Positions 30,364-46,101 of a stretch of DNA of 64,000 nt are shown here, piece after piece (within the stretch, counting starts at the first letter, position 1; the number at the start of each line of letters is the position of its first letter). Under the pieces are notes generated by a model, which was not told the DNA's origin, ran no database searches, and saw nothing but the letters and a program-made list of their open reading frames with translations. Made by a program: the position numbers and the translations under genes. This DNA is from Flavipsychrobacter sp. (lineage in GTDB: Bacteria > Bacteroidota > Bacteroidia > Chitinophagales > Chitinophagaceae). The stretch covers positions 2,681,336 through 2,745,335 of the forward strand of contig OZ245820.1 in the NCBI GenBank assembly GCA_965228505.1, given 5' to 3'.

Positions 30364-30400
30364 AAACGCTTTGTAAATCAATAGTTTATGAAGCGTTTTT
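30364..30400 (+). terminator. hairpin terminator after tRNA-Gln (island-derived side of attL)
   Basis: AAACGCTT (30364-30371) pairs with AAGCGTTT (30391-30398), followed by TTTTCTTTTT. Confidence 0.5.
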
Positions 30401-30467
30401 CTTTTTAGGGTACTGTATAGGGTACTACTTTTCTATAATTGCCTCTTTAGGGACTGTAAAAACTAAA

Positions 30468-31088: not shown

Positions 31089-31130
31089 ACTTAATAATTC
31101 TATATAAAGTTACTAAGTATTTAAAAAACG

Positions 31131-33986
31131 CTACTCTCCTCCCATGTTATTAATAAAGGTTTCAACAAAGTTCAACATCTTGTTTTTTATCCTTTCGGCT
31201 ATTGTTTTGCGTTCTCTGATACTCGGCTGTCCTTCATTACGTGCGCTTAATATATCATCCCTTAACGGTACGCGTTGTTCATAGGTATAACGCTCAATTA
31301 ACTCCTCCAGCCTTTTGCCGTCAAGGTTCTCTTCCTGTACTATAGCGTCAAAAGCCTTTTCCTGCTCAGCACTCCAGTATTTACTAAACTCCTCAGCTAC
31401 TTCATTACCGTCTTCAATACGTGGCATATTCTCCAGAATAAAGCGTTCTATGAGTTCCTTCTTGCTTCTTAACTGTGCTTCGCCACCTAACAGGTTTATA
31501 ATGTTCTTTCTTTGGTTTTCGTAATCCTCTCCCTCAGCATCTTTCATCTTAGCCAATAACTGTAGTATGTAATCTACATTTATCTCATCCCTATGTAATA
31601 GCTCCAGTGCAAAATCTACATCGTTGAGTATAGACTCCTTCTCTTTATCTCCTCCAGTTCTTACCTCATCATACAGATCAAGATATTTACTTCTATAGTC
31701 GGCAAATTCCTGTGCAGTCATATCCGTATCATCAAACTCAAAATCAACAAAGCAATCCAGCGTATTCTTTAGCCTCATTAAGTTTCTAAATGCCTGAGCA
31801 AACTCAAATTTTTCATTTTCTCCATGTAGGTCACTTACACTATCTACAGTTGGCACTATACTTTTAAGGTTGGCTACGGCTTCATTAAACTGCCTTATAT
31901 AGTCCTCATATGGCTCTAAGAAAATAACCTCTTTAGCATCTTTATTAGCAAATAAGGCTACAGCTTCATCCGTTAGGTCTTTCAGGTTTCTGAATACAAC
32001 TATATTGCCCTGACTCTTTTGCTCGTTCAATATTCTGTTAGTACGGCTATAGGCTTGTATCAGCCCGTGATACTTGAGATTCTTATCTACATAAAGTGTA
32101 TTCAGGTGCTTACTATCATAGCCCGTTAAGAACATATTTACTACCAGCAAAATATCAATCTCTTTATTCTTTACCCGCTTACCTATATCCTGATAGTATT
32201 TGTAAAATGCTTTACTGTCTTTAAGTGAGTGGCTGGTACTGAACATTTTGTTGTAGTCGGCTATATAGCTCTCCAGCTTCTCCCTGCTTTGCATATTTAC
32301 CGTTCCTGTAGCTTCCAGCTCATCTTCAAGCGTGCCGTTTGCGTCCTTATCCTCTTCATTCACATTGTATGAGAATATGGTAGCAATTTTCAGATTATGT
32401 TTTCCTGCTTCTTTTTTGGCTTTAAACAGGTCGTAATACTTCGCTATAATATCTATACCACTTACGCAAAATATGGCTGTAAACTCCCTGCTATGCGTTT
32501 TACGGTCATGGTTGGCAATGATGTAATCAACTATAGCCTCCAGCCTTTTAGGGGACTCCATCAACTCTTTTACATCTATGTCGTTTACGGGTATATCTAG
32601 ATCATTCTTACTGTCTTCTTTCTGCTTATACCTGCCTACATACTCCACACTGAACTTCAATACATTACCATCATTAATAGCATCTGTAATTACATACTTG
32701 TGCAGGCAATCGCCGAACAGGTCTTTAGTGGTACGCTTGCCCAGCTCATTTTTAGAGGCATTATCGGCAAATATGGGTGTACCTGTAAAGCCGAACATCT
32801 GATAATTATTAAAGAACTCAGTTATTCGCTTATGCGTATCTCCAAACTGTGAACGGTGGCACTCATCAAATATGAATACAATACGCTTATCGCGCAATGC
32901 CTCCATACTTTTCAGGTAGTTCTTTTTACTGATAGCCGTGTTTAGCTTTTGGATCGTGGTAACTATCAGTTGTGTATCATCTGTAAATTGCTTTACCAGT
33001 GTTTTTGTATCATCTGTACTGTCAACACTGCCTTCACTAAAGCTGTTGAACTCTTTTGCAGTTTGATAATCAAGGTCTTTCCTGTCTACCACAAACACTA
33101 CCTTATGTACTTGTGGCAGTTTGGTTATTATCTGGCTGGCTTTAAAAGAGGTAAGCGTTTTACCACTACCTGTAGTATGCCATATATAGCCGTTTTCAGT
33201 ACTGTTCTTTACCTTATCAATTATTGCTTCTACAGCGTTGTATTGATACGGGCGTAGTATCATTAGCTTTTTATCCGTCTCAGCTAATACGATATACTTG
33301 CATATCATTTTAGAGACATGGCAAGGCTCTAAGAATACCTTTGCAAACTCCTCAAGGTTCGTGATCTTTCTATTGTCTTTATCAGCCCAGAAAAAGGTTT
33401 GTTGAAAGGTCTCTTTATTCTTTTGGTTGGCTAGTAAGTTATTAGCGTAATACTTAGTATTGACACCGTTACTGATAACGAATATTTGTACATACTGAAA
33501 CAAGCCCTTGCCTGAACTGTAGGAATCTCTATGATAACGGTTGATCTGGTGAAATGCCTCTTTCATCTCCAAGCCTCTACGCTTTAGCTCTATCTGTACC
33601 AGTGGCAGCCCGTTAATGAGTATCGTAACATCATACCTGTTTTCGCGCTTGCCTGTCATGGTAATTTGCTGAGCTACCTGAAACTCATTCTGACACCAAT
33701 ACTCAAGGTTTAAGAACTCTATATACTGAGGCTTGCCCTCATCATTCGTAAACTGAAATTTATCGCGCAATAGCTTTGCCCTGTCAAATACACTGCCCTG
33801 ATTTAAGTGGTTGAGTATTTTGGCAAACTCATCATCACTAAAGGTGACATTATTATGCTTTTCTAGCTGCTTCTTTAAGTTGGCTAAAAGCTCCGCTTCA
33901 TCTTTTATAATTACCCGCTCATGGTTCAGCTCTTGCAATTGCTTTACAAGATTGCTCTCAAGTACTTGTTCAGGTTGTGTGGTCAT
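31131..33986 (-). CDS. hsdR: Type I restriction enzyme R subunit
   Basis: 951 aa with an N-terminal HsdR_N nuclease region, helicase motif I (TTGSGKT), motif II (FDECHRSQ) and a long helical C-terminal domain. Confidence 0.9.
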   Translation of the reverse strand: MTTQPEQVLESNLVKQLQELNHERVIIKDEAELLANLKKQLEKHNNVTFSDDEFAKILNHLNQGSVFDRAKLLRDKFQFTNDEGKPQYIEFLNLEYWCQNEFQVAQQITMTGKRENRYDVTILINGLPLVQIELKRRGLEMKEAFHQINRYHRDSYSSGKGLFQYVQIFVISNGVNTKYYANNLLANQKNKETFQQTFFWADKDNRKITNLEEFAKVFLEPCHVSKMICKYIVLAETDKKLMILRPYQYNAVEAIIDKVKNSTENGYIWHTTGSGKTLTSFKASQIITKLPQVHKVVFVVDRKDLDYQTAKEFNSFSEGSVDSTDDTKTLVKQFTDDTQLIVTTIQKLNTAISKKNYLKSMEALRDKRIVFIFDECHRSQFGDTHKRITEFFNNYQMFGFTGTPIFADNASKNELGKRTTKDLFGDCLHKYVITDAINDGNVLKFSVEYVGRYKQKEDSKNDLDIPVNDIDVKELMESPKRLEAIVDYIIANHDRKTHSREFTAIFCVSGIDIIAKYYDLFKAKKEAGKHNLKIATIFSYNVNEEDKDANGTLEDELEATGTVNMQSREKLESYIADYNKMFSTSHSLKDSKAFYKYYQDIGKRVKNKEIDILLVVNMFLTGYDSKHLNTLYVDKNLKYHGLIQAYSRTNRILNEQKSQGNIVVFRNLKDLTDEAVALFANKDAKEVIFLEPYEDYIRQFNEAVANLKSIVPTVDSVSDLHGENEKFEFAQAFRNLMRLKNTLDCFVDFEFDDTDMTAQEFADYRSKYLDLYDEVRTGGDKEKESILNDVDFALELLHRDEINVDYILQLLAKMKDAEGEDYENQRKNIINLLGGEAQLRSKKELIERFILENMPRIEDGNEVAEEFSKYWSAEQEKAFDAIVQEENLDGKRLEELIERYTYEQRVPLRDDILSARNEGQPSIRERKTIAERIKNKMLNFVETFINNMGGE

Positions 33987-34021
33987 AGTTGGTACAATTT
34001 ATTTATACACCTGCCCCGCAC

Positions 34022-35260
34022 CTATGCGGGAAACATTTGCTGTAATAAGCCTTTTTTAAACTCCTTACTTTGCTCCAGTTCTTTGTTTAGCACTATTATT
34101 TTATCATCTATACTGCTTAGATAATCAGCTATTTTTTGTTGTTCAGCTTTTGAAGGAATGGTAATATTTATATCCTCTAGGTATCTATAATATAAATTCG
34201 AAACATTTCCACCCTCTACCATTCGTGCAAATTGCTTTGATAGTGTATTAAAATAGTAACTTATGTATAACCCATTTTCACCAGTATTAAAAACTGAAAT
34301 CATTTCACCAATTGCTATGTCTTTAAATGGCAAAAAACTACATTTTGCAAAATCTTTTGGATCTTCACCAACACGCGGTACTAATACCTCTCCACCTTTA
34401 CTGAACCGTAGATTTTCAGGCTCAATATTAGTATAGGAGTATATTTTATCTACTATAGTATTAAATTTTGTATACAATTCTCCATATCTAACGCATGGCG
34501 TTTTAGCATCCTCAGATATAGACCATTTTGGAGCACTTTTACCATAATAGAAGTACCCTATATCTTTTATTGCTTTCTCCTCCCAATCAGGATAGTTATT
34601 ACCGTTATCATCCCCCGCTTTCTTCGGGGCAGGTTTAAAGCGTATTTGCTGGCTAAAGAGTTGTTGCATTACTCCTTTTTTGTATTGCTCCAGCAGTTCT
34701 TTTTTTCTACTCAGTTTTTGAATACGCTCATCCACAGCCGTTAAAAAATCAGCTATCTTTTGTTGTTCAGATTTGGTGGGTAATGGAATCGTAATCTTGT
34801 AAAAATCTCCATGATTTAAATCTGGTATAGTAGAAGTTCCCGCTAACCTTAATATTAAGTTTTGAACTTTGGTAGATACTAAATAATAATACAAAAATCC
34901 TTTTTCTACAATCTCTCTATTGTAGTCTATCTTAAAGAAGTTATTGTGAAAAGCACCAGTTACATTAGTTACTACCATGCCTGTATTGCCAGTTCTAGTC
35001 ATTAATATATCTTCCTCATCACATAGTACAGAACTAGTAGGGTTTTTAATATAATATTTGGCTTTAGAATTCTCTTTCAAAAACTCATTTGTTATATAAA
35101 AGTATGCTCCTTCTTCAGGTTCTTTAAGCCTATCAGCAATAGCAATCTGTAAGCCTTGGTTGATTTTTGAAATGTCCCTCATAGTTTTGAGTACCCATCC
35201 ATCATTAAACTCAGGAAAGCGCAAAGCAGGCAGGTTCTTTTTTTTCTGTTCTAAAATCAT
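34022..35260 (-). CDS. hsdS: Type I restriction enzyme S (specificity) subunit
   Basis: 412 aa with two target-recognition domains. Each is followed by a conserved helix (PLPTKSEQQKIADFLTAVDERI and IPSKAEQQKIADYLSSIDDKI). Confidence 0.9.
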   Translation of the reverse strand: MILEQKKKNLPALRFPEFNDGWVLKTMRDISKINQGLQIAIADRLKEPEEGAYFYITNEFLKENSKAKYYIKNPTSSVLCDEEDILMTRTGNTGMVVTNVTGAFHNNFFKIDYNREIVEKGFLYYYLVSTKVQNLILRLAGTSTIPDLNHGDFYKITIPLPTKSEQQKIADFLTAVDERIQKLSRKKELLEQYKKGVMQQLFSQQIRFKPAPKKAGDDNGNNYPDWEEKAIKDIGYFYYGKSAPKWSISEDAKTPCVRYGELYTKFNTIVDKIYSYTNIEPENLRFSKGGEVLVPRVGEDPKDFAKCSFLPFKDIAIGEMISVFNTGENGLYISYYFNTLSKQFARMVEGGNVSNLYYRYLEDINITIPSKAEQQKIADYLSSIDDKIIVLNKELEQSKEFKKGLLQQMFPA

Positions 35261-35263
35261 AGC

Positions 35264-36868
35264 TTAAAATGGTGTAGGTATGTTTAGTTGTTGGCAATAG
35301 TCGGCTATTCGCTTATCCGTTTCAGCTATGTCCTGCTCCAGTGCTTTCAGCTCATTGGCTACAGCTTCTATATCAACAGGCTCTTCCTCTTCAAAGGTGT
35401 CTACATAGCGCGGTATATTCAGGTTGTAGTCGTTTTCTTTCACCTCTTCCAGCGTAGCTACATAGCTGTATTTGTCTTCTGCTTTACGCTCTGTATAGGT
35501 GTCTATTATCTTGCTAATGTCTTCTTTGCGTAGCCTGTTTTGCTTGCCCACTTTCTCAAAATGGTTGCTGCTATCTATAAAGAGTATATCGTTAGGGTGT
35601 TCTTTACACTTCTTAAATACCAGTATGCAGGTAGGTATACTTGTACCATAAAACATATTGGCTGGCAGCCCTATTACAGCATCTAAATAATTGCGCTCTT
35701 CAATAAGGTATTGTCTTATTTGCGCTTCTGCTCCTCCTCTAAACAATACACCATGAGGCAATACTATTGCCATAATACCATTCTCGGCAAGCTGGTATAT
35801 CATATGTTGCACAAAGGCAAAATCGGCTGCACTTTTAGGTGCAAGCCTGCCATACTGGCTAAACCTGTCATCGGTATTAAACAGGCTCTTAGCACTCCAT
35901 TTGGCACTAAACGGGGGGTTAGCTACAATAGCCTCAAAACGCTCTTCAAGGTGTGCAGGGTGTTCCAGTGTATCATCTTGCCTGATGTCAAACTTGCTAA
36001 AGTGTACATCGTGCAATATCATGTTCATACGGGCTAAGTTGTAGGTTGTACGGTTCAGCTCTTGCCCGTAATAGTTGGCTACTTCTACCTCCTTACCTAT
36101 CCTTAATAGCAAAGAGCCACTACCACAGGTAGGATCATATGCACTCAGTATCTGCTTTTTGCCATTGGTCACCAATTTTGCCAATACCGTACTCACTGGC
36201 TGAGGTGTATAAAATTCACCAGCTTTTTTGCCTGCACCACTGGCAAACTTTCCAATCAGGTATTCATAGGCATCACCTAATATATCAGCATCGGTATCAC
36301 CCAGCTTAAAATCAATATTATTGAGGTGTGCCAGTATTTTGGCTATTAGCTTGTTTTTATCCTGCTCTGAGCGTCCTAATTTGGTACTGGTAAGGTCTAG
36401 GTCTTCAAAGAGCTTATTAAAGTCCTGTTCGCTCTCTGTACCCATTGTACTATTCTCAATATTGTTGAGTATAGCCGTAAGGTCTTCCAGTATAAAATTG
36501 CTTTTGGCTTCGCCGTGTGTATGTTCATCTTCCTGCTCCTCCTCTTCAACATTAGCACCTCCCTTTGCAGCAATAGCCCCAAACAACTCAGACGGGCGTA
36601 AGAAGTAACCCAACTTTAGCAAAGCATCTTCTTTTACATGCTCAATTATCTCCTCACCGTCTTCAGTCTTCTCTTGTATCTCTTCATATTTAATACCATC
36701 ATTTTTAAGTATCTCATTTGCATAAAGTGCAAACTTCTCAGACAGGTATTTGTAGAATATAAATCCGAGTGCATAATCTCTGAACTCATCCGCGTTCATT
36801 CTGCCTCTTAGTGTATCGGCAATGTTCCAAAGTTGCTGCTCTAGCTTCCTTTTTTGCTCTTCTGACAT
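35264..36868 (-). CDS. hsdM: Type I R-M N6-adenine DNA methyltransferase M subunit
   Basis: 534 aa with an HsdM_N region, SAM motif DPTCGSGSLL and catalytic NPPF (IVANPPFSAKW). Confidence 0.9.
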   Translation of the reverse strand: MSEEQKRKLEQQLWNIADTLRGRMNADEFRDYALGFIFYKYLSEKFALYANEILKNDGIKYEEIQEKTEDGEEIIEHVKEDALLKLGYFLRPSELFGAIAAKGGANVEEEEQEDEHTHGEAKSNFILEDLTAILNNIENSTMGTESEQDFNKLFEDLDLTSTKLGRSEQDKNKLIAKILAHLNNIDFKLGDTDADILGDAYEYLIGKFASGAGKKAGEFYTPQPVSTVLAKLVTNGKKQILSAYDPTCGSGSLLLRIGKEVEVANYYGQELNRTTYNLARMNMILHDVHFSKFDIRQDDTLEHPAHLEERFEAIVANPPFSAKWSAKSLFNTDDRFSQYGRLAPKSAADFAFVQHMIYQLAENGIMAIVLPHGVLFRGGAEAQIRQYLIEERNYLDAVIGLPANMFYGTSIPTCILVFKKCKEHPNDILFIDSSNHFEKVGKQNRLRKEDISKIIDTYTERKAEDKYSYVATLEEVKENDYNLNIPRYVDTFEEEEPVDIEAVANELKALEQDIAETDKRIADYCQQLNIPTPF

Positions 36869-36940
36869 AGGTTTTTATTAATGGGCATTAAAATACAAAA
36901 AGGAAAGATTTAGTATATAGGGTGAAAACACCCTTTCAGA

Positions 36941-36970
36941 AATAACCTAAATCCTTAGGGATTAGAGCCA
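36941..36970. repeat. repeat family C, copy 1 (inside the R-M island)
   Basis: AATAACCTAAATCCTTAGGGATTAGAGCCA matches 41710-41739 at 29 of 30 positions. Looser similarity continues ~10 nt on each side. Confidence 0.8.
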
Positions 36971-37146
36971 ATTAATGGTTTTAGAGCAATCCCCCCTCGC
37001 GCGCGCGTACTGGTTGTAAAACTCCAGCTATATGCTGAGAATTGTTAACATTTTCGCGCGTATGATGTCAGGTTTTATCAGGTTCATTACAACTATAAAT
37101 TTTATAAGTTTTCACAGTATACCTTAAGTGTGAAAAGCTATAAAAA

Positions 37147-38022
37147 TCAGCTTTCAATTAGTTCAATACTCTTTGCCTCAAACAAGGCTTTAAGAGCCTC
37201 CATATGGTCACATCTCCCCACATTTCTTACTATACCCTTAAAACGCTTAATACTGGCAAAATGAGCCTGTTTTTTACATTTCTTAATCTTTGCCCATTCC
37301 CTCGGATTGCTCCACTTATCATACACTTTCTTATCACAATTATTTAAGCTACTAGTATAAAGGCTGCTATCATCAAACACAAACCCATCAAAATAGTCTT
37401 TTAGCTTTTTCATTAATGCCAGCAAATTGCCTTTTACTGTAAGGTCTGCTAATGACTTTACACCACAGTCAGCAAAAAACCTTTGCTTCAGTCCTTTAAG
37501 CTCATATCTTAATATGTTCCTGTCTGATATATGGTACTGTTTTGCCTTATCATAAAGCTTTACCACATAATCGGTGTGCTTGTATTGTGTATAGTAGCCT
37601 GTTTTACTGTCTATAGGCACAGATGGCAATTTGCATTTATAGCAGATCACATCTTTAATAATCGCCTCAGCCGGCATTGCAGTATTTACATTTAACCCAA
37701 ACTCAAGGTTATGAATGTGCATGTTATATGGCTCAATACCTGTAAAGCAAGAAAGAATACTAATAGCTTTACAAAGCTCAGAAAAAGTAAAATCCGTATG
37801 GTTATGCCCTCTATGATAAAGCTTATGAAGACTACCTTCAATAATCATATACCGTTCAGACTTAACAACAAAATCAAAGCCATTCCATTGCCCTCTAATA
37901 GGATACTCATTCACCTCACCTGTATCAATATTTGACGTAACAGATAATATACTTCCAGCCCTCTCAATAAACTGTGAAATATCCTGCTTTAAGGTGACTG
38001 ATATTTTCAACCAGTCAACCAT
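37147..38022 (-). CDS. putative replication-initiation protein (phage/plasmid gene II/X-like)
   Basis: 291 aa. The N-terminus MVDWLKISV and ...IIEGSLHKLYHRGHNHTDF... resemble, from memory, the MIDWL... / G.p.K...GHN..G pattern of rolling-circle Rep proteins. Weak and unsearched. Confidence 0.35.
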   Translation of the reverse strand: MVDWLKISVTLKQDISQFIERAGSILSVTSNIDTGEVNEYPIRGQWNGFDFVVKSERYMIIEGSLHKLYHRGHNHTDFTFSELCKAISILSCFTGIEPYNMHIHNLEFGLNVNTAMPAEAIIKDVICYKCKLPSVPIDSKTGYYTQYKHTDYVVKLYDKAKQYHISDRNILRYELKGLKQRFFADCGVKSLADLTVKGNLLALMKKLKDYFDGFVFDDSSLYTSSLNNCDKKVYDKWSNPREWAKIKKCKKQAHFASIKRFKGIVRNVGRCDHMEALKALFEAKSIELIES

Positions 38023-38121
38023 TTACCGTACCTTTATACCAGTGAACGATTAGAGGTAACACTCTTATTGTTTGCAATTGTTGAACACAATAGAAAGGGA
38101 TAAGCCGCAATCTTATCCCTT

Positions 38122-38451
38122 TCACTTTTTATTGTTCTTTGCGCTGCCAATCTCTGAAAGAGCCTGCTCAACATCCTTCCTCCAATACCTCACTCTAGTG
38201 CCTACAGTACGCCCCTTCACGGTCTTGTTAAGCGTCCATTTGTGCAAGGTAGGCAAAGACACTCCTAATATCTTAGCTGCCTGTTTACGCGTCAATAACT
38301 CATCCTGCTTATCAGTATTTGTGTCTACTGATCTAGTTATTAAACTTACTCCTTCCTGAAATTCTGCTTTTACCGTTTCGGCTACTACTTGTCTTAATTG
38401 TTCTTCTGTTAGTACTATTAACTGTTGCATACTATATGTATTTGTATGCAA
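38122..38451 (-). CDS. excisionase-family helix-turn-helix DNA-binding protein
   Basis: 109 aa with the segment LLTRKQAAKILGVSLPTLHKWTLNKTVKGRTVGTRVRYWRKDVEQAL, typical of MerR/Xis-type HTH_17 domains. Confidence 0.6.
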   Translation of the reverse strand: MHTNTYSMQQLIVLTEEQLRQVVAETVKAEFQEGVSLITRSVDTNTDKQDELLTRKQAAKILGVSLPTLHKWTLNKTVKGRTVGTRVRYWRKDVEQALSEIGSAKNNKK

Positions 38452-38484
38452 GTTGGCGGGATTTTATTGTATTTGTTTTCGGAC

Positions 38485-38500
38485 TACTTTCGCGAAAGTA
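38485..38500. promoter_or_regulatory. perfect 16-nt palindrome upstream of the Xis-like gene (candidate operator)
   Basis: TACTTTCGCGAAAGTA equals its own reverse complement. It lies 34 nt upstream of the start at 38451 and is preceded by TCGGACT (38479-38485), the same heptamer as the tRNA acceptor 3' strand. Confidence 0.35.
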
Positions 38501-38507
38501 AATTTTC

Positions 38508-39236
38508 CTATTTCAAACTGTCTTTAAAGGGAATTTTAAACCTAGCTCTATTACTAGGGGATAATGAATTTTGTCTTTCGCTTATCTCCTTTTCTATAGT
38601 AGCCTTTTTAGCAACTATATCAAAATGCTGTAATAATAATTCAGTGTCTTTTCTTAATGAGTTACTAGGCTTTTCAATATAGCCCTTACCTATTAGCTCC
38701 TGTATAATAAAACCGAACTGTGCAGGCGTGCCAAGCCATTTGAGTTTATTTGTTGTATTAAGTAATCCTATTTCCTGATACCCTATGTCTTGCTTCTCTA
38801 TTCTTAGCGTTCTAGAGTCTAATTTTAATGATTCCTGTAAATAGTAAAAATCAACATCAAATTGTAGGCAAATCAAATAAATGTTATTAATTAAGTCTTC
38901 TCGAAGGCAGTAAAGTCTAAATAATACTTCCTGCTCTTTGGTCATTTTTTCAAAATCAAATTTACCCCTATCATATGCCTCTAGAGTTTGTTTATTTTCT
39001 TCAAGAATATATTTTACACCGTATGTTATTATGCTTAAAACCTCATGTATATATGCTCTTGTTTTAGTTTCATCTAGTTGAAATAAGTTTTGTTTGATTT
39101 CATTTAACAGCAATCTAAATGTTGTATTTTCAAACTCTGCACTTAACACTTCCTCGTTGCAATCTAAATCATCTTCGCTATTTCCAGTTAAACACTCAAT
39201 AATAGTTTTTAACCTTTCTAGTTGTTCAAATCTCAT
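38508..39236 (-). CDS. hypothetical regulatory protein (RteC-like C-terminal region)
   Basis: 242 aa. The C-terminal NKLKWLGTPAQFGFIIQELIGKGYIEKP...LLLQHFDI resembles, from memory, the RteC C-terminal pattern of Bacteroidota integrative elements. It overlaps the integrase gene's stop codon by 4 nt. Confidence 0.3.
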   Translation of the reverse strand: MRFEQLERLKTIIECLTGNSEDDLDCNEEVLSAEFENTTFRLLLNEIKQNLFQLDETKTRAYIHEVLSIITYGVKYILEENKQTLEAYDRGKFDFEKMTKEQEVLFRLYCLREDLINNIYLICLQFDVDFYYLQESLKLDSRTLRIEKQDIGYQEIGLLNTTNKLKWLGTPAQFGFIIQELIGKGYIEKPSNSLRKDTELLLQHFDIVAKKATIEKEISERQNSLSPSNRARFKIPFKDSLK

Positions 39237-40528
39237 AAATCAAAACCTTGCTTTACTCTAGTACTTTTTTGCCAGTTTAATTGCAAAATCTTAGCGTGTT
39301 CTTTTGGCGTTACTTTAATGTAGCTTAAAAATGCTTTTTCGGTCTTATGCCCTGTAATAGCCATTATAGTAATGGCAGGCACTCCATTTTTATAGTTATT
39401 AGTAGCAAATGAGCGTCTTGCAGTGTGTGTAGTTATAAGCTTGTGTTTTTTTAAGCTCTTAGTAATCCCAGTACCAGCTTTTGTAATGGTCTTACTTTGT
39501 GTCTCTTGCAATTCAGGTATATCAGCTATCTCTTTTAAATACTCGTTAGTCTTTTGGTTAGTTATTGCCTTTGGTAGCTCTCCATAATACTTATCTAATA
39601 TTCTTTGCACCTCAGGGTGTACAGGTATAGTTACGGGATTACTTGTTTTTTGCTGTACAATTTCAATAAATCCATCTTCTATATGCTCGGCTTTCAATTT
39701 ACTCAGGTCAGAAAACCTTAAGCCTGTATAGCAACCTACAATAAACAAATCCCTAACCTGTTCATGTCCTTTCCTATTAGTCAGGTCAATACGTGCTAAT
39801 GCTGCAATTTCATTCTCAGTAAGATATATGCTATCAGTCTTTTCAGATACCCTTTTAAACAACTTGCTTTTATATGCTAAGTTCTTATTAACACCTCTTT
39901 CTGTAGCATCATTAAGTATGGCTTTCAGGTTCTTAATATGCTTACCTATTGAGTTGGTACTTTGCAATTGCTTTTTTGACAAATACTCAGTAAATCCGTA
40001 ATAAAAATCAAGATCAATAGTATCAAAATCCACAGGGCGTTTAATAGTCTTTTGATACAACTTAATAAAATTCAGTGTCCCTTCATAAGTATTAATAGTA
40101 CCTGAAGTTACAGGCTTCCCATTAGGGTTTAAACGAATACCTTCTTTTGATTGAGCAATGAAGTTTTCAAAATAAGAGATAAAAGAGTTTTCGGAATTAG
40201 CAACTACTGTATCAGGCTTAATTTTTGCATCAAACAGGTCTTTTAACACATTCTTGCTAGGCTCTTCTTTTTTTGTAGCCACATAATCCCTATACACCTC
40301 TTCCATATCAGCCAACCAGCCCCGCAATAAATGGTTTGAGGCTGCAAATCCTGATAGCGTCCTTCTAAATTGTTGCTCTTTCTGATTCCAGTGTTTTGGC
40401 TCTATTGTTATTGGCAGGTAGTACTTTAAAAACGGTTTGCCATTTATTAAGACGCGTGCAAATAGTGGTGTTCTCTTCTTTGCCTTAACGTCTTTAAGGA
40501 AAAAGGTTACTCTCATAATGTTTTGCAA
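39233..40528 (-). CDS. site-specific tyrosine integrase
   Basis: 431 aa with an N-terminal arm-binding-like domain, a SAM-like core-binding domain, and a catalytic domain with GLRFSDL, HTARRSFATN and GHKTEKAFLSYI. Confidence 0.9.
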   Translation of the reverse strand: MQNIMRVTFFLKDVKAKKRTPLFARVLINGKPFLKYYLPITIEPKHWNQKEQQFRRTLSGFAASNHLLRGWLADMEEVYRDYVATKKEEPSKNVLKDLFDAKIKPDTVVANSENSFISYFENFIAQSKEGIRLNPNGKPVTSGTINTYEGTLNFIKLYQKTIKRPVDFDTIDLDFYYGFTEYLSKKQLQSTNSIGKHIKNLKAILNDATERGVNKNLAYKSKLFKRVSEKTDSIYLTENEIAALARIDLTNRKGHEQVRDLFIVGCYTGLRFSDLSKLKAEHIEDGFIEIVQQKTSNPVTIPVHPEVQRILDKYYGELPKAITNQKTNEYLKEIADIPELQETQSKTITKAGTGITKSLKKHKLITTHTARRSFATNNYKNGVPAITIMAITGHKTEKAFLSYIKVTPKEHAKILQLNWQKSTRVKQGFDL

Positions 40529-40716
40529 TGTTGAACATTGTAAAAATACGAAAATAGTACCCCAAAAATGACTGGGGGACTAAATGGGGGACTATTTTTT
40601 TTAATCAGCCTTTATTTAGCTTTATTTCTCTTAATCACCTGAAACACCTATAAACAGGGCGAAATACTGAACAGCATTATATTTCAGGAAAATTTAAGAA
40701 ACTAAAAAATACCATA

Positions 40717-40739
40717 GTTCGAGTTCAGGTCGGACTGCT
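40717..40739 (+). repeat. attR: partial copy of the tRNA-Gln 3' end
   Basis: GTTCGAGTTCAGGTCGGACTGCT versus tRNA GTTCGAATCCAGGTCGGACTGCT. The T-loop here is non-canonical (TTCGAGT), which fits an element-derived mimic. Confidence 0.75.
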
Positions 40740-40744
40740 AAAAA

Positions 40745-40767
40745 GCCCCTCTGAGAGGGGCTTTTTT
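40745..40767. terminator. hairpin terminator (probable ancestral tRNA-Gln terminator, also serves the convergent gene 40800-41282)
   Basis: GCCCCTC (40745-40751) pairs with GAGGGGC (40755-40761), flanked by AAAA and TTTTTT. Confidence 0.6.
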
Positions 40768-40799
40768 AGTTAATGCTTGTTATCAACACCAAGGGTCGA

Positions 40800-41282
40800 T
40801 TAAGAATGAGGTAAACCTAGTTCTCGTAACTGAAAAATAGAGTCCGCATTTTTATACTTTGCGATAATAAGATTTATACAACTGTATTTTTTATTTTCTT
40901 TAGTATTTACGCCGACCTCATACCTTCTTGAAAATGCGTATACATCATCACTACCTATGTTAATATCGCTAAATGGCATATCGGAGTTATATGGAATTTT
41001 CACCCTAGTCTTATCATCTAAAACATAATAATATTTTGATTCAATAGAATGCCCTTCATTATCTTCAAATTGTGTCCTAAGGATTCCATTTGTATCAATT
41101 TCATAAATTCTACATCCATCTTCATATTTAACAGGCTTACCATCTAAACAATTAAAATAAACAACAATAATTCCTTGATAATTGTGAGGTATATAAAATA
41201 TTTCCTGTCCTTTTACTTTACAACCACTTAGATAGTAGATAAATAAAAAAGCTACTATTATTGTAGTAATAATTCTCATCAT
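40800..41282 (-). CDS. hypothetical lipoprotein (array ORF 1)
   Basis: 160 aa with lipobox MMRIITTIIVAFLFIYYLSGC, in a very AT-rich region. I recognise no family. Confidence 0.5.
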   Translation of the reverse strand: MMRIITTIIVAFLFIYYLSGCKVKGQEIFYIPHNYQGIIVVYFNCLDGKPVKYEDGCRIYEIDTNGILRTQFEDNEGHSIESKYYYVLDDKTRVKIPYNSDMPFSDINIGSDDVYAFSRRYEVGVNTKENKKYSCINLIIAKYKNADSIFQLRELGLPHS

Positions 41283-41294
41283 TTAGGTTTGTAA

Positions 41295-41340
41295 CACCTT
41301 AAGTTCGGGAAAATTCAGGAAAGACGCTTAATGTCAACTA
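41295..41340. repeat. repeat family B, copy 1
   Basis: CACCTTAAGTTCGGGAAAATTCAGGAAAGACGCTTAATGTCAACTA matches 43486-43531 at 42 of 46 positions. It lies 13 nt upstream of the start codon of ORF 40800-41282. Confidence 0.8.
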
Positions 41341-41354
41341 CTATTGTTCCTTTA

Positions 41355-41412
41355 GGTCTTGTGACCACACCAATCAGAATCTGCATCAGTGTGTTGGTTG
41401 GTGACAACACCC
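41355..41412. repeat. repeat family A, copy 1
   Basis: GGTCTTGTGACCACACCAATCAGAATCTGCATCAGTGTGTTGGTTGGTGACAACACCC aligns to 42442-42499 with 53 of 58 identical. Confidence 0.8.
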
Positions 41413-41474
41413 GATTGAATAAACCTATTTGTCAACTCAAACCAACACACTAATAGTATAATTATATTTGATCT

Positions 41475-41714
41475 ATGGAAACAGTAACCTTTTATTTAGG
41501 AGAAGAAAACGGTACTTATAGTTCATCTTCTGTAGAGCCAATATGCGATTGCCATATCAATACTATGGCTGATAGTAAGCAAGGTATAATTGATAATATT
41601 AAAATGCTGATCAAAGATTTCATGGATAATGAATGGAAAAATGACGCTTACTGGAGTAAAGTGAATATTGATGAACTGGAAATTAAATTCATTGACTACG
41701 ATTTTACAGAATAA
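41475..41714 (+). CDS. small hypothetical protein, inverted relative to the array
   Basis: 79-aa acidic ORF filling an otherwise 520-nt gap. There is a faint HicB/UPF0150-like pattern (TFYLGEENGTYSSSSVEPICDCHINTMADSKQGIIDNIKMLIKDF). Its stop codon overlaps repeat C copy 2. Confidence 0.35.
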   Translation: METVTFYLGEENGTYSSSSVEPICDCHINTMADSKQGIIDNIKMLIKDFMDNEWKNDAYWSKVNIDELEIKFIDYDFTE

Positions 41715-41739
41715 CCTAAATCCTTAGGGGTTAGAGCCA
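41710..41739. repeat. repeat family C, copy 2
   Basis: AATAACCTAAATCCTTAGGGGTTAGAGCCA matches 36941-36970 at 29 of 30 positions. Confidence 0.8.
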
Positions 41740-41760
41740 TTTTAAAGGTTTTTTACCTCT

Positions 41761-41792
41761 GTATCAGTGTTGGTTGGTGTTTTACCAACCAA
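41761..41792. repeat. family A fragment fused to a 9-bp hairpin
   Basis: GTATCAGTGTTGGTTGGTG (41761-41779) matches the GCATCAGTGTGTTGGTTGGTG part of copy A1 with a 2-nt gap. TTGGTTGGT (41770-41778) pairs with ACCAACCAA (41784-41792). Confidence 0.6.
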
Positions 41793-41804
41793 AAGGGGAA
41801 AAAT

Positions 41805-42413
41805 TTACATTCCTGTTAGACAAATTTCATCTACGATATATGGGTGATAATCGATATAATACCCCGACTCATGTAGCTTTTTCAAAACACTTATAAAAAG
41901 ATATTTTTCAATCTTTTGCACATTCCTTTTAACCCAAAGCTTTCTAACTCTATTATATGTGTTAATACCCCCTAAATTTCTAACAAATACAGATGGGAAG
42001 TCGTCAACATAAAAAATTTCAGACGTTACAAATCCATTTATTTTTAGTAATGTGTTATTGCTTCTATATAGAAGATAACTAAATGAATTTTCAGTAAATA
42101 AATTGACAAATGGTGATTTCGGAATTATTAAAAATTTTATTTCAACAAAATAATACCCTAAAGTACTGTCTATGTGAACTATAGAAACTCTATTTTCAAA
42201 CTCTACATTAATATCGTCTATAGTATTAATATTTTTAACTGTATCCTTACCATTTATAACATAGCTAGTCTGATCATTCTGTAGTAAACATCCATTGTAC
42301 AGCTCATTTAAAAAGAGCAAATCCTCGAATACTAGTTTTTTTATATCCTCATGTTGCGCACGACTTACAAGACACATTGTAACAGTGATAAAAAGAGTAA
42401 ATATTCTTTTCAT
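41805..42413 (-). CDS. hypothetical secreted protein (array ORF 3)
   Basis: 202 aa with signal peptide MKRIFTLFITVTMCLVSRAQ. I recognise no family. Confidence 0.5.
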   Translation of the reverse strand: MKRIFTLFITVTMCLVSRAQHEDIKKLVFEDLLFLNELYNGCLLQNDQTSYVINGKDTVKNINTIDDINVEFENRVSIVHIDSTLGYYFVEIKFLIIPKSPFVNLFTENSFSYLLYRSNNTLLKINGFVTSEIFYVDDFPSVFVRNLGGINTYNRVRKLWVKRNVQKIEKYLFISVLKKLHESGYYIDYHPYIVDEICLTGM

Positions 42414-42436
42414 TTCAAATAATCATTTTTTTCTTT

Positions 42437-42505
42437 TGGTCGGTCTTGTGACCGTACCAATCAGAATCTGCATCAATGTGTTGGTTCGTGACAACAACCT
42501 AAAGG
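42437..42505. repeat. repeat family A, copy 2
   Basis: 69 nt aligning to 42951-43019 with 2 mismatches. 42443-42505 is identical over 63 nt to 42957-43019. Confidence 0.85.
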
Positions 42506-42522
42506 AAAATGATTTTACACTT

Positions 42523-42894
42523 TTAAAACTTAAAATAAATATTATGATTAGTTTCAACTGCTTTTTGTAATAGTTGAATAATCCTACTTACAAGAAATTT
42601 TTCTCTAACCTCTTTAATTTCAATTGTATATTTTTTCAATCTAAATGATATAATCTTTTTAACTTCTTGCGAATTCACCCAACCATCTTCATAAGGACCA
42701 ATCATACTATCGTTTACATCATTAATTAAATCTAGTACTTTCTGATCTAAAAGATATACATCCTCTATTGCTAAAGAAATAACATTTTCATTTTCAGTGT
42801 TGGAATAAGCCCAAGAAATTGCGTCAGAGTACTCCATGTCCCTTTCATCAAATTCTAAAGGCAATACAAATATTAAATAATTTTCACTAGTCAT
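42523..42894 (-). CDS. hypothetical acidic cytoplasmic protein (array ORF 4)
   Basis: 123 aa with no signal peptide and many Asp/Glu (MTSENYLIFVLPLEFDERDMEYSDAISWAY...). I recognise no family. Confidence 0.5.
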   Translation of the reverse strand: MTSENYLIFVLPLEFDERDMEYSDAISWAYSNTENENVISLAIEDVYLLDQKVLDLINDVNDSMIGPYEDGWVNSQEVKKIISFRLKKYTIEIKEVREKFLVSRIIQLLQKAVETNHNIYFKF

Positions 42895-42950
42895 TATTTT
42901 TCATGTGCTTTTGCTGTTGATTATAATTCTTTACATGATTACATTGCTTT

Positions 42951-43019
42951 TAGTCAGTCTTGTGACCGTACCAATCAGAATCTGCATCAATGTGTTGGTT
43001 CGTGACAACAACCTAAAGG
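42951..43019. repeat. repeat family A, copy 3
   Basis: See copy 2. The offset between copies 2 and 3 is 514 bp. Confidence 0.85.
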
Positions 43020-43024
43020 GGAGA

Positions 43025-43471
43025 TTATTCCATTCTTAAAACACGTATATACAAAAGCTTCTTAGTATCAGAACTGAAATCTAATATTAACCCCTCAATA
43101 CCAGGACGAAAGCCTCCAGCTTTTTCAGAATCCATGTTATTTGAATTATAAGTATAGTATACATAGGAAAATTGATCCTCAGGATGTAAATATGTTCTTA
43201 CTTCTGATGGATCTCCCAAATAATATCGTACCGAATCAACAGAAACACTATCAATAATACAGTTACGCAAACGATGTTCGACCACACTTCTATACCCATT
43301 GTTCGCTAAAGAATCAGTACGCCAATAATATGTAACATGTTTCAATATTTTTGTGCAATCATGCTGCACTGTTTGAGTTTGCTCTGGTACATTATATTCT
43401 ACCAGTTCAGGATACTTACATGCAAAACTGGTCCACACCAATAACAACAGTATGATTATTCTCCTTATCAT
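43025..43471 (-). CDS. hypothetical lipoprotein (array ORF 5)
   Basis: 148 aa with lipobox MIRRIIILLLLVWTSFAC. I recognise no family. Confidence 0.5.
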   Translation of the reverse strand: MIRRIIILLLLVWTSFACKYPELVEYNVPEQTQTVQHDCTKILKHVTYYWRTDSLANNGYRSVVEHRLRNCIIDSVSVDSVRYYLGDPSEVRTYLHPEDQFSYVYYTYNSNNMDSEKAGGFRPGIEGLILDFSSDTKKLLYIRVLRME

Positions 43472-43485
43472 ATTAAAGCTGGCTG

Positions 43486-43531
43486 CACATTAAGTTCGTG
43501 AAAATTCAGGAAAGATGCTTAAAGTCAACTA
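43486..43531. repeat. repeat family B, copy 2
   Basis: CACATTAAGTTCGTGAAAATTCAGGAAAGATGCTTAAAGTCAACTA lies 15 nt upstream of the start codon of ORF 43025-43471 and 9 nt from the stop of the core gene at 43540. Confidence 0.8.
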
Positions 43532-43539
43532 TCATTTTC

Positions 43540-46101
43540 CTACCACTCAAACTTCTCGCTATCCTCATCTACGGTAAGTCCGCCCAGCAAGCCTAACATA
43601 CCCATATCTAAACCTATACGCACACCCGTCATCCGGTTATTGAAATTGTCCCATGACTGTACCACATCAACCCTTAAGAACCTGAATATCTTATACCCGA
43701 GGTTGTCTATGCCTATAAATGCTTCTGTATAATAGTTGTTAGTGTTGATGAACAGGGTGTTAGTTCCTGCTACTACATTCCACCTGGCCCTGCGCAATAG
43801 CGGCAGTTTATTGGTCAACAACCCGTTCATGTTATACTCGATATGTGCTTCGGCATACAGGTCGGTCGTGTTGCTGTATTGGTAGTATGGTGCCAACTGG
43901 AAACTACGCAGGTATGGCGATGCAATGATGAGCCTGTTGTCTGCAATGTGCATCATGTCGGGCAGGCTTACATAGTTCTTATTCAGAAAACCTCCTACAC
44001 CTATATTGTATTCAATACTACCCAGCAGTTTCATATTCATATAGTCAGACACGGCAAAACGCCAGTTGTCAAAATCTACTTTACTGTTCAGCAAGCCCGG
44101 TATACCCTTATCATATTCCAACGTAAACACAGGCCATTTACTGTACTGCGGCGAGAGAAAATCAGGATATTGCACATAGGTCACTCCCGGCTGATAAGAC
44201 ACAGATGCTTTAGCCAATACAGCATTATGCACCTCCCAAAGCATACCAGAAAGCTGGTCAGGCACATTCGGAGTAAAGAGCTTTTCTCCATCGCCCGAAA
44301 AAGTATAAAAAGACGTGTTCGCAACAGGCAGTCTGCGCTGGAAACCACCCTTGAACTTAAAGGCAAAACCATTACCGAAATTCCTGCCCACAAATGCTGC
44401 TGCCGTCCATCGCTCGTAGAGCTTCATGTAATTCCTGCCGTAGAGCAATGTAGTAACGGTATTGTACAAAGGGGTGATGGTATTTCTCGGGTTGTACTGG
44501 AAAATGTATTTACCACCTTCTACCCCCAGCCACCATTTTCTACTGCGCCAGCTTCTGTCGTTGGTGGTATAAGTAATACGCCCGTATGTATTAAAATGGG
44601 TGTTACTGAAACCATATCTGGTACCTAATACTGTATTAAGTGTTTTGCCGGTATCTATCTGATGGTCCCACCAGAATTTCGGGGAAACGACCACACCTTC
44701 TACTGTGTTGTATTCCATCATACCATTCATCAACGAGTTGGTGGCAAAACGGTGTTTGTTCTCTTTTGTTGTATAGCTGTACCCACTCAATAGCAGGTCT
44801 CCCGCCTTGAATTTATTGCGCAGCCTCCTCATCGAGTCCCTGTATTCGGGCGAGGATAACTTTGCATGTATACTGTCCCGTTTGTTATAATCTACTCTTT
44901 CATCCTCTTCAAGCGGAAGCACTCTGGCATCCGTCCAATAGCTGGTATCTTTCTTCTTGGCATTCTTATCGTATGAGCTGATCACTTTATCTTTAAACAA
45001 GCTATCAGGTAACGGCTCATTTATTTTATGTGCATCATAAACTGCCACGAAGTTGCCTGTAAAATCCATACCCAGAAACTTTAATGTAGGATATTGCACC
45101 TGACTTTTTATCACCCATGTATCTTTCTTGAGCGGCAGGTATGTTTGTTCAATTTGCAGAGAGTCTATACCTGTCAGGTTCGACTTTTTAGTCAACCAAA
45201 GGTTAAGGCTGTGTATTGCCCAGTCTTTATCTACTATGTAAATAGTACCGCTGAACAATGGCTCGTATAGCCTGCGTGGAGTAACATCTATCTTGTAAAT
45301 AGTGTAGTCGTCCTGCATGAACTGTCCCTGAAAACGGTATTTATAATACAGCAGCGCATTTTCACTTATGGGTGATATAAACCCCCTCTCACTGATCTCC
45401 CAGAGCGGATTCACATTGTTATCATAGAAAGAAACAATAGGCGGCATTCTCGACAAACCGAAACCATTAGGATTACCACTCTCACGTACAGAACGGATAA
45501 CAGTTCGCTCCTTTTTCCCGTCAGTATAATAGTCTGCTTCCTGCTCGCTCAGGTATAATATCCCTAAACTGCTGGAATCGGCACCGCCACCACCAGATGA
45601 CTCCATATCATCACCTGAAATATCAAAACCGAAAATATTTGAAGGCATCTCTCTATTACGGATAACACCTTTCATATAAATAGAGGTTTGCAGTTGTTCT
45701 ATCTGCTCTTTATGGAATTTCCTTCTTTTTATTGCCTTTCTAATAATGGCATACGCCGGGTCTTCGGCATTGGCTTTTACAACCACATCTTTCATCTGCA
45801 GTGCCTGCTCTGCTAAAGAAAAATCGTGTGTAATAGTCTCCCCTTCTTTTATCGTAACAGTATACGTCGCTTTTTCAAAACCCATATACTGGCAATACAC
45901 AGTATACTGTCCGGGGCTGAGCTGTAGTATATACTCTGCTTTAGCATTAGCCGCAGTACCCATAGTGGTACCCTTTATATAAACTGTTGCATAGGGTAAG
46001 GGCTCACCTTTGGTGTCAGTGATCACACCTTTCAAAACACCACAGTAACTAATAAAAGGGGTCAAGCAAGAAAATAAAGTAAGTAGTATAGCTCTGGTCA
46101 T
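43540..46101 (-). CDS. carboxypeptidase-regulatory-like domain plus DUF5686-type outer-membrane protein
   Basis: 853 aa with a signal peptide and an N-terminal CarboxypepD_reg pattern (GVITDTKGEPLPYATVYIKGTTMGTAANAKAEY). The long Tyr/Asn/Gly-rich beta region ends ...EKFEW. Confidence 0.7.
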   Translation of the reverse strand: MTRAILLTLFSCLTPFISYCGVLKGVITDTKGEPLPYATVYIKGTTMGTAANAKAEYILQLSPGQYTVYCQYMGFEKATYTVTIKEGETITHDFSLAEQALQMKDVVVKANAEDPAYAIIRKAIKRRKFHKEQIEQLQTSIYMKGVIRNREMPSNIFGFDISGDDMESSGGGGADSSSLGILYLSEQEADYYTDGKKERTVIRSVRESGNPNGFGLSRMPPIVSFYDNNVNPLWEISERGFISPISENALLYYKYRFQGQFMQDDYTIYKIDVTPRRLYEPLFSGTIYIVDKDWAIHSLNLWLTKKSNLTGIDSLQIEQTYLPLKKDTWVIKSQVQYPTLKFLGMDFTGNFVAVYDAHKINEPLPDSLFKDKVISSYDKNAKKKDTSYWTDARVLPLEEDERVDYNKRDSIHAKLSSPEYRDSMRRLRNKFKAGDLLLSGYSYTTKENKHRFATNSLMNGMMEYNTVEGVVVSPKFWWDHQIDTGKTLNTVLGTRYGFSNTHFNTYGRITYTTNDRSWRSRKWWLGVEGGKYIFQYNPRNTITPLYNTVTTLLYGRNYMKLYERWTAAAFVGRNFGNGFAFKFKGGFQRRLPVANTSFYTFSGDGEKLFTPNVPDQLSGMLWEVHNAVLAKASVSYQPGVTYVQYPDFLSPQYSKWPVFTLEYDKGIPGLLNSKVDFDNWRFAVSDYMNMKLLGSIEYNIGVGGFLNKNYVSLPDMMHIADNRLIIASPYLRSFQLAPYYQYSNTTDLYAEAHIEYNMNGLLTNKLPLLRRARWNVVAGTNTLFINTNNYYTEAFIGIDNLGYKIFRFLRVDVVQSWDNFNNRMTGVRIGLDMGMLGLLGGLTVDEDSEKFEW

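Follow-up and report, generated by a model that had tools for sequence, protein, structure and literature searches.

A strain-variable, AT-rich array of small genes with a palindromic junction repeat beside tRNA-Gln in Flavipsychrobacter sp.

Introduction

We report on an AT-rich array of small genes in the chromosome of Flavipsychrobacter sp. (GCA_965228505.1, contig OZ245820.1, positions 2,681,336-2,745,335 of the forward strand), the content of which differs between strains and the junctions of which carry an apparently species-specific palindromic repeat, here called repeat A. These 64,000 nucleotides (nt) represent the window, to which all coordinates refer unless another contig is named. 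The array interval comprises window positions 40740-43539, is bounded by a core gene of the DUF5686 family and by the end of a tRNA-Gln gene, and is a real and non-trivial feature at a polymorphic-toxin and tRNA hotspot. We tentatively propose that the locus represents a horizontally acquired, strain-variable cassette array in a hotspot between the DUF5686 gene and tRNA-Gln, in which repeat A would act as recombination site at the cassette boundaries; we regard this proposal as a serious possibility.

[quoted passage not shown] How the rAID arrays are built is an open question (PMC12247911). Arrays that are devoid of a recombinase were formerly ascribed to poor assemblies; here, the array is situated in a complete chromosome and no recombinase adjoins it. 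Furthermore, a defined palindromic repeat and three natural variants of the same locus make a small, tractable system for asking whether recombination takes place at the repeat and, if so, by which enzyme. Our literature search revealed no reports of such arrays in Chitinophagaceae.

The tryptophanyl-tRNA synthetase of the host shows 90% identity to that of a metagenome-assembled genome of Chitinophagaceae and 83-84% to that of Flavipsychrobacter, which places the host outside the Bacteroidales; it is a soil-type member of the Bacteroidota, family Chitinophagaceae. Sister-strain versions of the locus were reached via exact-protein look-ups of dNK, of the cluster mate of ORF202 (see below) and of PBP2; the same look-ups with the DUF5686 protein and four of the array proteins gave no match. 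One sister strain is represented by a 109-kb metagenome scaffold covering the same locus (L018), a third strain is seen as two pieces, one from the DUF5686 side (L005) and one from the tRNA side (L031), and a short contig originates from a different sample (L019). DNA similarity to plasmids or phages was not found.

Composition and genes of the array

As proposed in the initial annotation, five small open reading frames (ORFs) of 160, 79, 202, 123 and 148 amino acids (aa) are found across positions 40800-43471, and the N-termini quoted there are correct. The sharp contrast in composition is confirmed as well, since the G+C content (GC) of the array is 0.31 compared to 0.400 +/- 0.024 in 2.8-kb windows of the core, among which the minimum is 0.346. 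Four of the five genes are co-oriented on the minus strand and ORF79 is inverted. Each gap between array genes holds a repeat, A, B or C, and in the direction of the four genes the order is DUF5686 gene, B, ORF148, A, ORF123, A, ORF202, half copy of A with C, inverted ORF79, A with B, ORF160, terminator and tRNA end. The array of the window contains no toxin-sized gene, as was already noted in the annotation, and also no C-terminal toxin fragments.

On its 5' side the variable locus has a fixed border, namely the core gene for a CarboxypepD_reg and DUF5686 protein (43540..46101, minus strand; Pfam DUF5686 at 7.6e-201). This gene is 96-97% identical to its counterparts in L018 and L005; the homology reaches as far as the stop codon and breaks off exactly there. 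The next gene, ORF148 (43025..43471, minus strand), encodes a lipoprotein-like ORFan of 148 aa with the N-terminus MIRRIIILLLLVWTSFAC, which has no match in Pfam, NCBIfam, PADLOC, PHROG or PDB and is the one member of its protein cluster. It is followed by ORF123 (42523..42894, minus strand), the product of which is an acidic, cytoplasmic protein of 123 aa from the DMP12 family and a candidate orphan immunity protein. ORF202 (41805..42413, minus strand) encodes a secreted ORFan of 202 aa and belongs to a module that is common to L018 and L019; among 5.8e9 proteins, only ORF202 itself and one homologue in the same 90%-identity cluster were found. The inverted ORF79 (41475..41714, plus strand) encodes an acidic protein of 79 aa and has its own TATATTTG box at 41463. 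Finally, ORF160 (40800..41282, minus strand) encodes a DUF6843 lipoprotein of 160 aa (Pfam, 1.5e-14), with a weak PDB match to the 'putative lipoprotein' 4o4a (E 0.009). It is the final array gene in the window strain and in L018, where the counterpart matches DUF6843 at 1.7e-14, and a sister-strain mate in the 90%-identity cluster is its only relative in the 5.8e9 proteins.

Three of the five products thus carry signal or lipoprotein N-termini (ORF148 and ORF160 lipoprotein-like, ORF202 secreted). Functional matches for ORF148, ORF202, ORF160 and ORF79 were not obtained in the Pfam, NCBIfam, PADLOC, PHROG and PDB searches, and none of the array proteins had a meaningful match in PADLOC, PHROGs or NCBIfam. 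Word-indexed homologue searches with ORF202 and ORF160 returned the queries alone, and the single-sequence AlphaFold2 models of ORF148 and ORF202 were unusable (predicted local distance difference test scores, pLDDT, of 34.6 and 41.7, respectively). Location and targeting of these four proteins suggest that they may have an immunity role.

Repeat A and its distribution

In a repeat search of the window, repeat A appeared as a sequence of 76 nt with 79-96% identity between copies, and by profile search it covers approximately 85 nt; the repeat families A, B and C described in the initial annotation are indeed present in the gaps, and A is longer than stated there. Its three full copies in the window all lie on the minus strand. 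Copy 1 (41341..41426; nhmmer E 2.1e-24) is truncated at its 3' end, where it merges into B, copy 2 covers 42425..42509 (E 7e-27), and copy 3 (42940..43025; E 2.8e-25) forms an imperfect palindrome oriented like the array genes. In addition, there is a half copy (41758..41800, minus strand; profile positions 8-50), which comprises unit 1 and the first part of the spacer and ends at CTGATACAGA, as well as an inverted partial A-like segment upstream of ORF79 (41429..41454, plus strand), which forms inverted-repeat pairs with the A copies. A 30-mer from A occurs three times in the window and in none of 100 shuffles.

Including the seven full and two half copies in L018 and one copy each in L005 and L031, all full copies (12/12) are in gene-sense orientation, one per junction. 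The repeat starts 10-24 nt past the preceding stop codon, with the exception of approximately 85 nt after the gene for a 212-aa protein in L018, and it ends between 4 and about 130 nt ahead of the next start codon. The consensus of 11 copies (81% mean column identity) reads ...TTTCCCTTTT GGTTGGTG TTGT CACCAACCAA CAC TGATGCAGATTCTGA TTGGTACGGTC ACAA GACCGACCAA AAGGAAAAA. It is composed of two mutually inverted palindromic units of 26 nt, roughly TTGGTTGGTG-TTGT-CACCAACCAA and TTGGTACGGTC-ACAA-GACCGACCAA, which are separated by a highly conserved spacer of 15-18 nt (CAC TGATGCAGATTCTGA). The outer arms CTTTTGGTTGGT and ACCGACCAAAAG are complementary too, and A can therefore fold as two hairpins or as one long stem. 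Consistent with this symmetry, the profile of A matches its own reverse strand, and as single-stranded DNA the copies fold more stably than shuffled sequence (z -2.3 to -4.6). Many invariant columns fall in the central spacer, which would fit a crossover region needing a match between partner sites.

Statements on A at the genome level rest on the window, which covers approximately 2% of the 3.56-Mb genome. By profile search, A was not found in the other ~61 kb of the window nor in the flanks of the sister-strain loci. When species-representative genomes (one per GTDB species, 185,579 species), 241 million metagenome records and viral contigs were scanned with its central and best conserved 19-20-mer, only chance or coding matches appeared, and these show approximately 36/76 identity when compared to the whole of A. 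Most of the matches in these collection scans are due to a yihY/BrkB-like membrane-protein gene of the Segatella copri complex, in which the A 20-mer sits by chance. Rfam holds nothing that matches A. A relation between A and the att sequence of tRNA-Gln was considered and rejected as chance, the similarity being limited to GGTCGG.

Repeat B exists in two copies on the minus strand of the window, one directly upstream of ORF160 (41295..41345) and one between the DUF5686 stop and the ORF148 start (43486..43536), which are 88% identical. In L018 it is likewise found ahead of the 105-aa and the DUF6843 genes, and in L031 ahead of the SprB gene. Repeat C (41710..41751) forms the 3' flank of ORF79 and has a second copy with 86% identity at 36941-36982, between a 291-aa ORF and hsdM inside the neighbouring restriction-modification (R-M) island. 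It is the sole sequence common to island and array; the 24-nt core of C occurs twice in the window and not in the shuffles.

Variation of the array between strains

Three strains have three different sets of genes between the DUF5686 gene and tRNA-Gln. The array of L018, with a GC of 0.32, contains 9-10 small genes, at least eight of which are co-oriented. Its order is DUF5686 gene, A, 212-aa gene (BatD-like), A, 179-aa gene, A, 77-aa gene with ParE, half copy of A with C, inverted ORF79, A with B, 105-aa gene, A, 149-aa gene, A, ORF202, half copy of A with C, a scaffold gap, A with B, the DUF6843 gene and tRNA-Gln, which is intact there and followed by PBP2 and RodA. The ParE toxin-antitoxin pair lies within one cassette and has its own -7 box, and the array cargo further includes BatD-like and DUF3887-like proteins in addition to ORFans. 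Part of the L018 gene order is repeated on contig L019.

In the third strain, A follows directly after the DUF5686 stop codon (L005), and on the tRNA side (L031, positions 1-9820) there is an ORF of more than 3,406 aa, then a 102-aa multi-transmembrane ORF, A with B and a 959-aa SprB/CHU_C protein, the latter being a type IX secretion substrate. The giant ORF contains the Rhs-core end motif YRFGFNGQEKDNE...RIYDSRLGRFMSVDP...IDLDGA, followed by a C-terminal domain of ~230 aa, which has a GHSLG motif and sub-threshold matches to alpha/beta-hydrolases and lipases. Hence, the same chromosomal site hosts a polymorphic toxin of the Rhs type in a sister strain. On L005 (13258-13433), the A copy after the DUF5686 gene runs to its exact 3' end (..GACCGACCAAAAGG|) and there adjoins a stretch of 94 nt, which is 95% identical to the last hsdR codons of the R-M island in the window (31140-31234), and the contig then ends; this join could have come about by deletion, by capture or in the assembly.

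Modules that are shared between strains have different neighbours. The ORF202 module (window 42499-41714) is 97% identical to L018 9916-10700, and its upstream neighbour is ORF123 in the window and the 149-aa gene in L018. Across the A copy upstream of ORF202, the two strains differ in 8/41 columns on the left and in 1/27 on the right. Likewise, the ORF79 module (window 41794-41289 and L018 8492-8997) is 95% identical and is followed by ORF160 in the window and by the 105-aa gene in L018. The gain, loss and reordering of cassettes at repeats, which had been put forward in the initial annotation as a means to check the array, are therefore seen among the three strains, with modules re-joined at A. 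Moreover, two A copies of the window that follow different genes have identical left halves.

The junction of half copy A and C occurs twice in L018, and the C-ORF79-A-B module is apparently present twice as well, although for its second copy only the flanks are seen, because it is cut by a scaffold gap of 100 N (L018 10701-10800). A gap inside a repeat that the assembler could not resolve implies that the true L018 array probably holds a second ORF79. The inversion of the ORF79 module via two A sites was also considered and was rejected, because the hybrid structure that it predicts is not seen at the left junction.

Relation of the array to the tRNA-Gln island

The tRNA-Gln gene is located at 30280-30351, and its 3' end is duplicated at attR (40717..40739, plus strand; 21/23 bases identical to 30330-30352). 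Between them, a 10.4-kb integrative island (30353..40716, minus strand) has inserted into tRNA-Gln, which encodes a type I R-M system (hsdR/S/M), a helix-turn-helix protein and a tyrosine integrase (39233-40528; Pfam domains Arm-DNA-bind_5, SAM_5 and Phage_integrase). The array lies upstream of this integrase gene on the same strand and outside attR. In L018 the island is missing, window positions 30352 and 40717 are contiguous and an intact tRNA-Gln is found at the attR position. Since L018 has the larger array and lacks the island, the island is a separate, later insertion. The array is independent of the adjoining integrase and their adjacency is real but incidental; accordingly, the link to the neighbouring tyrosine recombinase that the initial annotation had considered is not upheld, because the integrase belongs to the R-M island, which L018 lacks although its array is intact and larger. 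The nearest recombinases are this island integrase and a core gene of the XerC/D type (21472-22470) approximately 19 kb away.

ORF123 and the DMP12 family

The acidic ORF at 42523-42894 indeed lacks a signal peptide and has an isoelectric point (pI) of 4.55. It matches the Pfam family DMP12 (PF16779) with 2.9e-6 over residues 5-123, the 27.7 bits being only just above the gathering cut-off of 27, and the PDB entry 3w1o with 9.5e-7 over residues 3-123. When 1.84 billion representative proteins were scanned in full with HMMER, 64 relatives were obtained, almost all of them stand-alone proteins of ~120 aa, and the two with taxon names belong to Bacteroidota. The closest relative, on contig L020, shows 58% identity.

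The genomic context of these homologues is informative. On L020 and on an Aureibacter contig (L029), the DMP12 homologue overlaps the stop codon of an upstream ORF, and the C-terminal domains of the two upstream ORFs are 53% identical over 107 aa. The upstream ORF of Aureibacter begins with the Rhs-core end motif YGFNGKEKDDE...YNLGARMYDARIGKMFSVDP..., and an RHS-repeat protein of 2,896 aa is encoded ~6 kb upstream of it. No Pfam family matches the ~107-aa C-terminal domain, which may be an undescribed toxin domain. The other DMP12 homologues are solitary or occur among small genes of unknown function. Where a gene overlaps the stop codon of an Rhs C-terminal toxin, the layout corresponds to that of orphan toxins and their immunity genes, as established for Rhs, contact-dependent inhibition (CDI) and Maf systems. 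In Neisseria, DMP12 is located in an operon 3' of maf-3 (PMC3643605). The overlap of the homologues with Rhs C-terminal toxin stops and the maf-3 position in Neisseria make ORF123 a credible orphan immunity gene. They also suggest that DMP12, annotated as "DNA mimic", is really an immunity family for Rhs/Maf-type toxins, which, if true, would change the annotation of those genes. Regarding the immunity array assumed in the initial annotation, the homologues of ORF123 in immunity position and the giant Rhs-type toxin at the L031 locus speak for this assumption, which for the four other proteins would be an extrapolation from their position and targeting.

The Aureibacter module (L029:7024-8372) corresponds to Aureibacter tunicatorum AP025305. 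On this contig, two adjacent tyrosine-recombinase genes (4325-6024) are situated upstream of the Rhs C-terminal/DMP12 module, a gene for a Y1 transposase of the IS200/RAYT type (9584-10177) downstream, and the large RHS gene further upstream. The family thus has another neighbourhood rich in recombinases.

Comparison with known systems and alternative explanations

The gene-repeat-gene layout recognised in the initial annotation is real and is even clearer in L018, where seven full and two half copies of A stand one per junction. However, the array fails the defining tests of both systems to which this layout had been compared. In sedentary chromosomal integrons and in clusters of attC sites lacking integrases (CALINs), the attC sites form arrays (Cury et al. 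2016, PMC4889954). Our array resembles these systems in the order of co-oriented genes and repeats, in imperfect palindromes of ~85 nt that lie within the range of 57-141 nt, occur once per cassette in uniform orientation and are similar within the species like the Vibrio VCRs, in a toxin-antitoxin pair that forms one cassette with a promoter-like box, and in cassettes of unknown function and foreign composition. The attC sites are built from R''-L''...L'-R' boxes, with a conserved structure and a variable sequence. In contrast, A consists of two local palindromic units around the conserved 15-18-nt spacer and not of one long R''-L''/L'-R' stem, and a regular-expression search of both strands of both arrays revealed no pair of R'' (RYYYAAC) and R' (GTTRRRY). 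Moreover, the window encodes no IntI, as the NCBIfam integron-integrase model reached 18.8 bits compared to the cut-off of 265, and this on the island integrase alone; neither an IntI integrase nor an attI site lies beside the array, and the inverted module inside the array is a further difference. That the array is a classical integron array without integrase, with A being an attC site used by an IntI elsewhere, appears very improbable. The case for rAID-1 is even weaker. Its criteria are a tyrosine recombinase resembling XerD, with 44% or more identity to BF9343_RS08045, that is encoded immediately 5' and co-oriented, at least two co-directional downstream genes with GC <=41% and repetitive intergenic motifs, and a host from the order Bacteroidales (Ross et al. 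2019, 10.1101/471110; PMC12247911), and close homologues of this recombinase were reported only in Bacteroidales (10.1101/471110). The array shares with rAID-1 the co-directional low-GC genes (four in the window, at least eight in L018), repeats at every junction, a mix of envelope-targeted and cytoplasmic small proteins with one or more genes whose family occurs in the immunity position of polymorphic toxins, and a content varying between strains. In contrast to rAID-1, the 5' neighbour of the array is the CarboxypepD_reg/DUF5686 gene in all three strains (window, L005 and L018), the island integrase is encoded on the 3' side of the array, outside attR, and the host belongs to Chitinophagaceae. 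In addition, the repeat is apparently species- and locus-specific, and the array borders on a tRNA gene and, in one of the strains, on a gene for an Rhs toxin. The published rAID motifs are given only as logos; the 20-mer of A has no genuine match in the 185,579 representative species genomes, which should include gut Bacteroidales. It is thus hardly credible that the array is a member of rAID-1; the best description is an integron-like or rAID-like cassette array that belongs to neither system and is tied to a polymorphic-toxin hotspot. Cargo of the tRNA-Gln island, moved by the island integrase, is the least probable origin of the array and can practically be dismissed: the integrase gene is only ~270 nt from the array and a second copy of C lies inside the island, but the array is outside attR, and L018 refutes this explanation by having the array without the island and an intact tRNA-Gln right after the DUF6843 gene, barring a scaffold misassembly. 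That the locus is just an operon at the species level, encoding housekeeping lipoproteins behind conserved regulatory leaders, would agree with the signal or lipoprotein N-termini of three of the five products and with the position of ORF160 (DUF6843), which is kept at the array end in two strains. Yet the contents differ across all three strains, the GC falls under the minimum of the core 2.8-kb windows, the ORFans have no relatives outside their own 90%-identity cluster in the 5.8e9 proteins, and a toxin-antitoxin pair and an Rhs toxin are found at the locus in sister strains, which leaves very little room for such an operon.

Similarities to polymorphic-toxin loci and to dispersed palindromic repeats lead to the remaining alternative. 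Neisseria maf islands contain DMP12/NMB2123 (PMC3643605, PMC3150448). With the Rhs, CDI and Maf systems, the array has in common a member of the DMP12 family, ORF123, an Rhs toxin with a small membrane protein at the locus of a sister strain, and downstream small genes that vary between strains. Exchange at Rhs loci is thought to run through homology of the core-encoding region and not through intergenic palindromes, and in the array of the window toxin C-terminal fragments are absent and the modules are separated by a structured repeat instead of rhs core remnants. As the main alternative, the locus could be a passive hotspot, i.e. the variable tail of an Rhs/tRNA-adjacent island that changes by horizontal transfer and by homologous recombination via the core flanks and the repeats A, B and C. 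There would be no dedicated recombinase, and A would be a hairpin that structures transcripts or resembles repetitive extragenic palindromes organised as doublets (REPINs) or miniature inverted-repeat transposable elements (MITEs). We regard this as possible, though we would lean against it. No recombinase adjoins the array, other elements have demonstrably used the tRNA-Gln site as a hotspot, and A is short, palindromic and intergenic, with terminal inverted repeats and a stable hairpin, as is the case in REPINs, MITEs and the related repetitive extragenic palindromic (REP) sequences and bacterial interspersed mosaic elements (BIMEs). Furthermore, the identical left halves of two A copies of the window suggest homogenisation or gene conversion, and together with the apparent duplication of the C-ORF79-A-B module in L018, the second copy of which is cut by the gap, they indicate that homologous processes do act at the locus. 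However, MITE-like spread would result in random orientation and irregular spacing, whereas the full copies without exception have gene sense, stand one per junction and start 10-24 nt after stop codons (85 nt once). Copies are confined to one locus in the available sequence, none being present in the ~61 kb of surroundings; target-site duplications are not evident at the 12 copies, and no Y1/RAYT transposase was detected among the window genes scanned. A passive hotspot also leaves it unexplained how unrelated foreign genes came to share the same repeat.

According to our proposed cassette array, each cassette would consist of one gene or one toxin-antitoxin pair followed by repeat A, and A would be a cassette-boundary recombination site analogous to attC. 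The recombinase acting on A would be encoded elsewhere and act in trans, and homologous recombination between A copies would add reshuffling. The cargo would be mostly small envelope-targeted proteins and at least one cytoplasmic orphan immunity protein, ORF123, and with such a cargo the array would act as a store of protection against the polymorphic toxins that competitors deploy, at a locus where a sister strain has an Rhs toxin. One oriented A per junction close behind the stop codons, the palindromy with four half-sites and a conserved spacer, the foreign cargo, the toxin-antitoxin pair as one unit and the reassortment between strains fit a cassette array in which A is the boundary and most plausibly a recombination site. 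Several points weigh against it. Homologous recombination alone could yield the observed reshuffling, and none of the three strains has a recombinase dedicated to the array. The right half of A is alike in almost all copies, hence the exchange point can be placed only somewhere within A and the crossover cannot be fixed more precisely from these sequences, and all half copies of A stem from one historical junction. RNAalifold found compensatory changes in 0/18 predicted pairs of 11 A copies, so the structure of A is backed by symmetry and energy only; the MAFFT alignment used is out of register at the left end and the pair counts exclude the long outer stem. A might also be dispersed in low copy number, given that only the above-mentioned ~2% of the genome was inspected, and four of the five proteins in the window are without family, context or structural tie to immunity. 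A bolder version, which we consider rather unlikely, assumes a new gene-capture system of Chitinophagia that would be analogous to integrons and independent of integrons and Bacteroidales rAID. It would use ~85-nt double-palindrome sites with four TTGGT-N-GGT half-sites and a non-IntI recombinase encoded elsewhere, possibly of the Xer type, and would stockpile orphan immunity genes, toxin-antitoxin pairs and genes for large surface proteins beside the Rhs hotspot.

Other features of the locus

The exact -7 box of Bacteroidetes (TAnnTTTG) occurs in the arrays only before ORF79 (41463-41470) and before the ParE cassette of L018 (7904-7911). An argument for promoterless cassettes, based on A being without this box, was dropped because the box is rare even before core genes, where it is present in 4 of 29 with upstream gaps. 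Three short plus-strand ORFs (41331-41453, 42295-42570 and 42905-43039) have peptides such as LVTVPIRICINVLV in common. This is due solely to their crossing the A repeats, which makes them repeat artefacts and not paralogous genes.

The array is closed beside the 3' end of the tRNA by a G+C-rich, terminator-like hairpin (40746..40760) with T runs on both strands, which is conserved in L018, and an Rfam scan of 40000-44000 (E up to 10) gave sub-threshold matches alone, driven by this hairpin. Within the island, a 206-aa ORF without family match is located between hsdR and the attL end (30468-31088). In L031, 80 nt beside tRNA-Gln match the left end of the island in the window (30352-30431), hence remnants of the island flank the L031 content.

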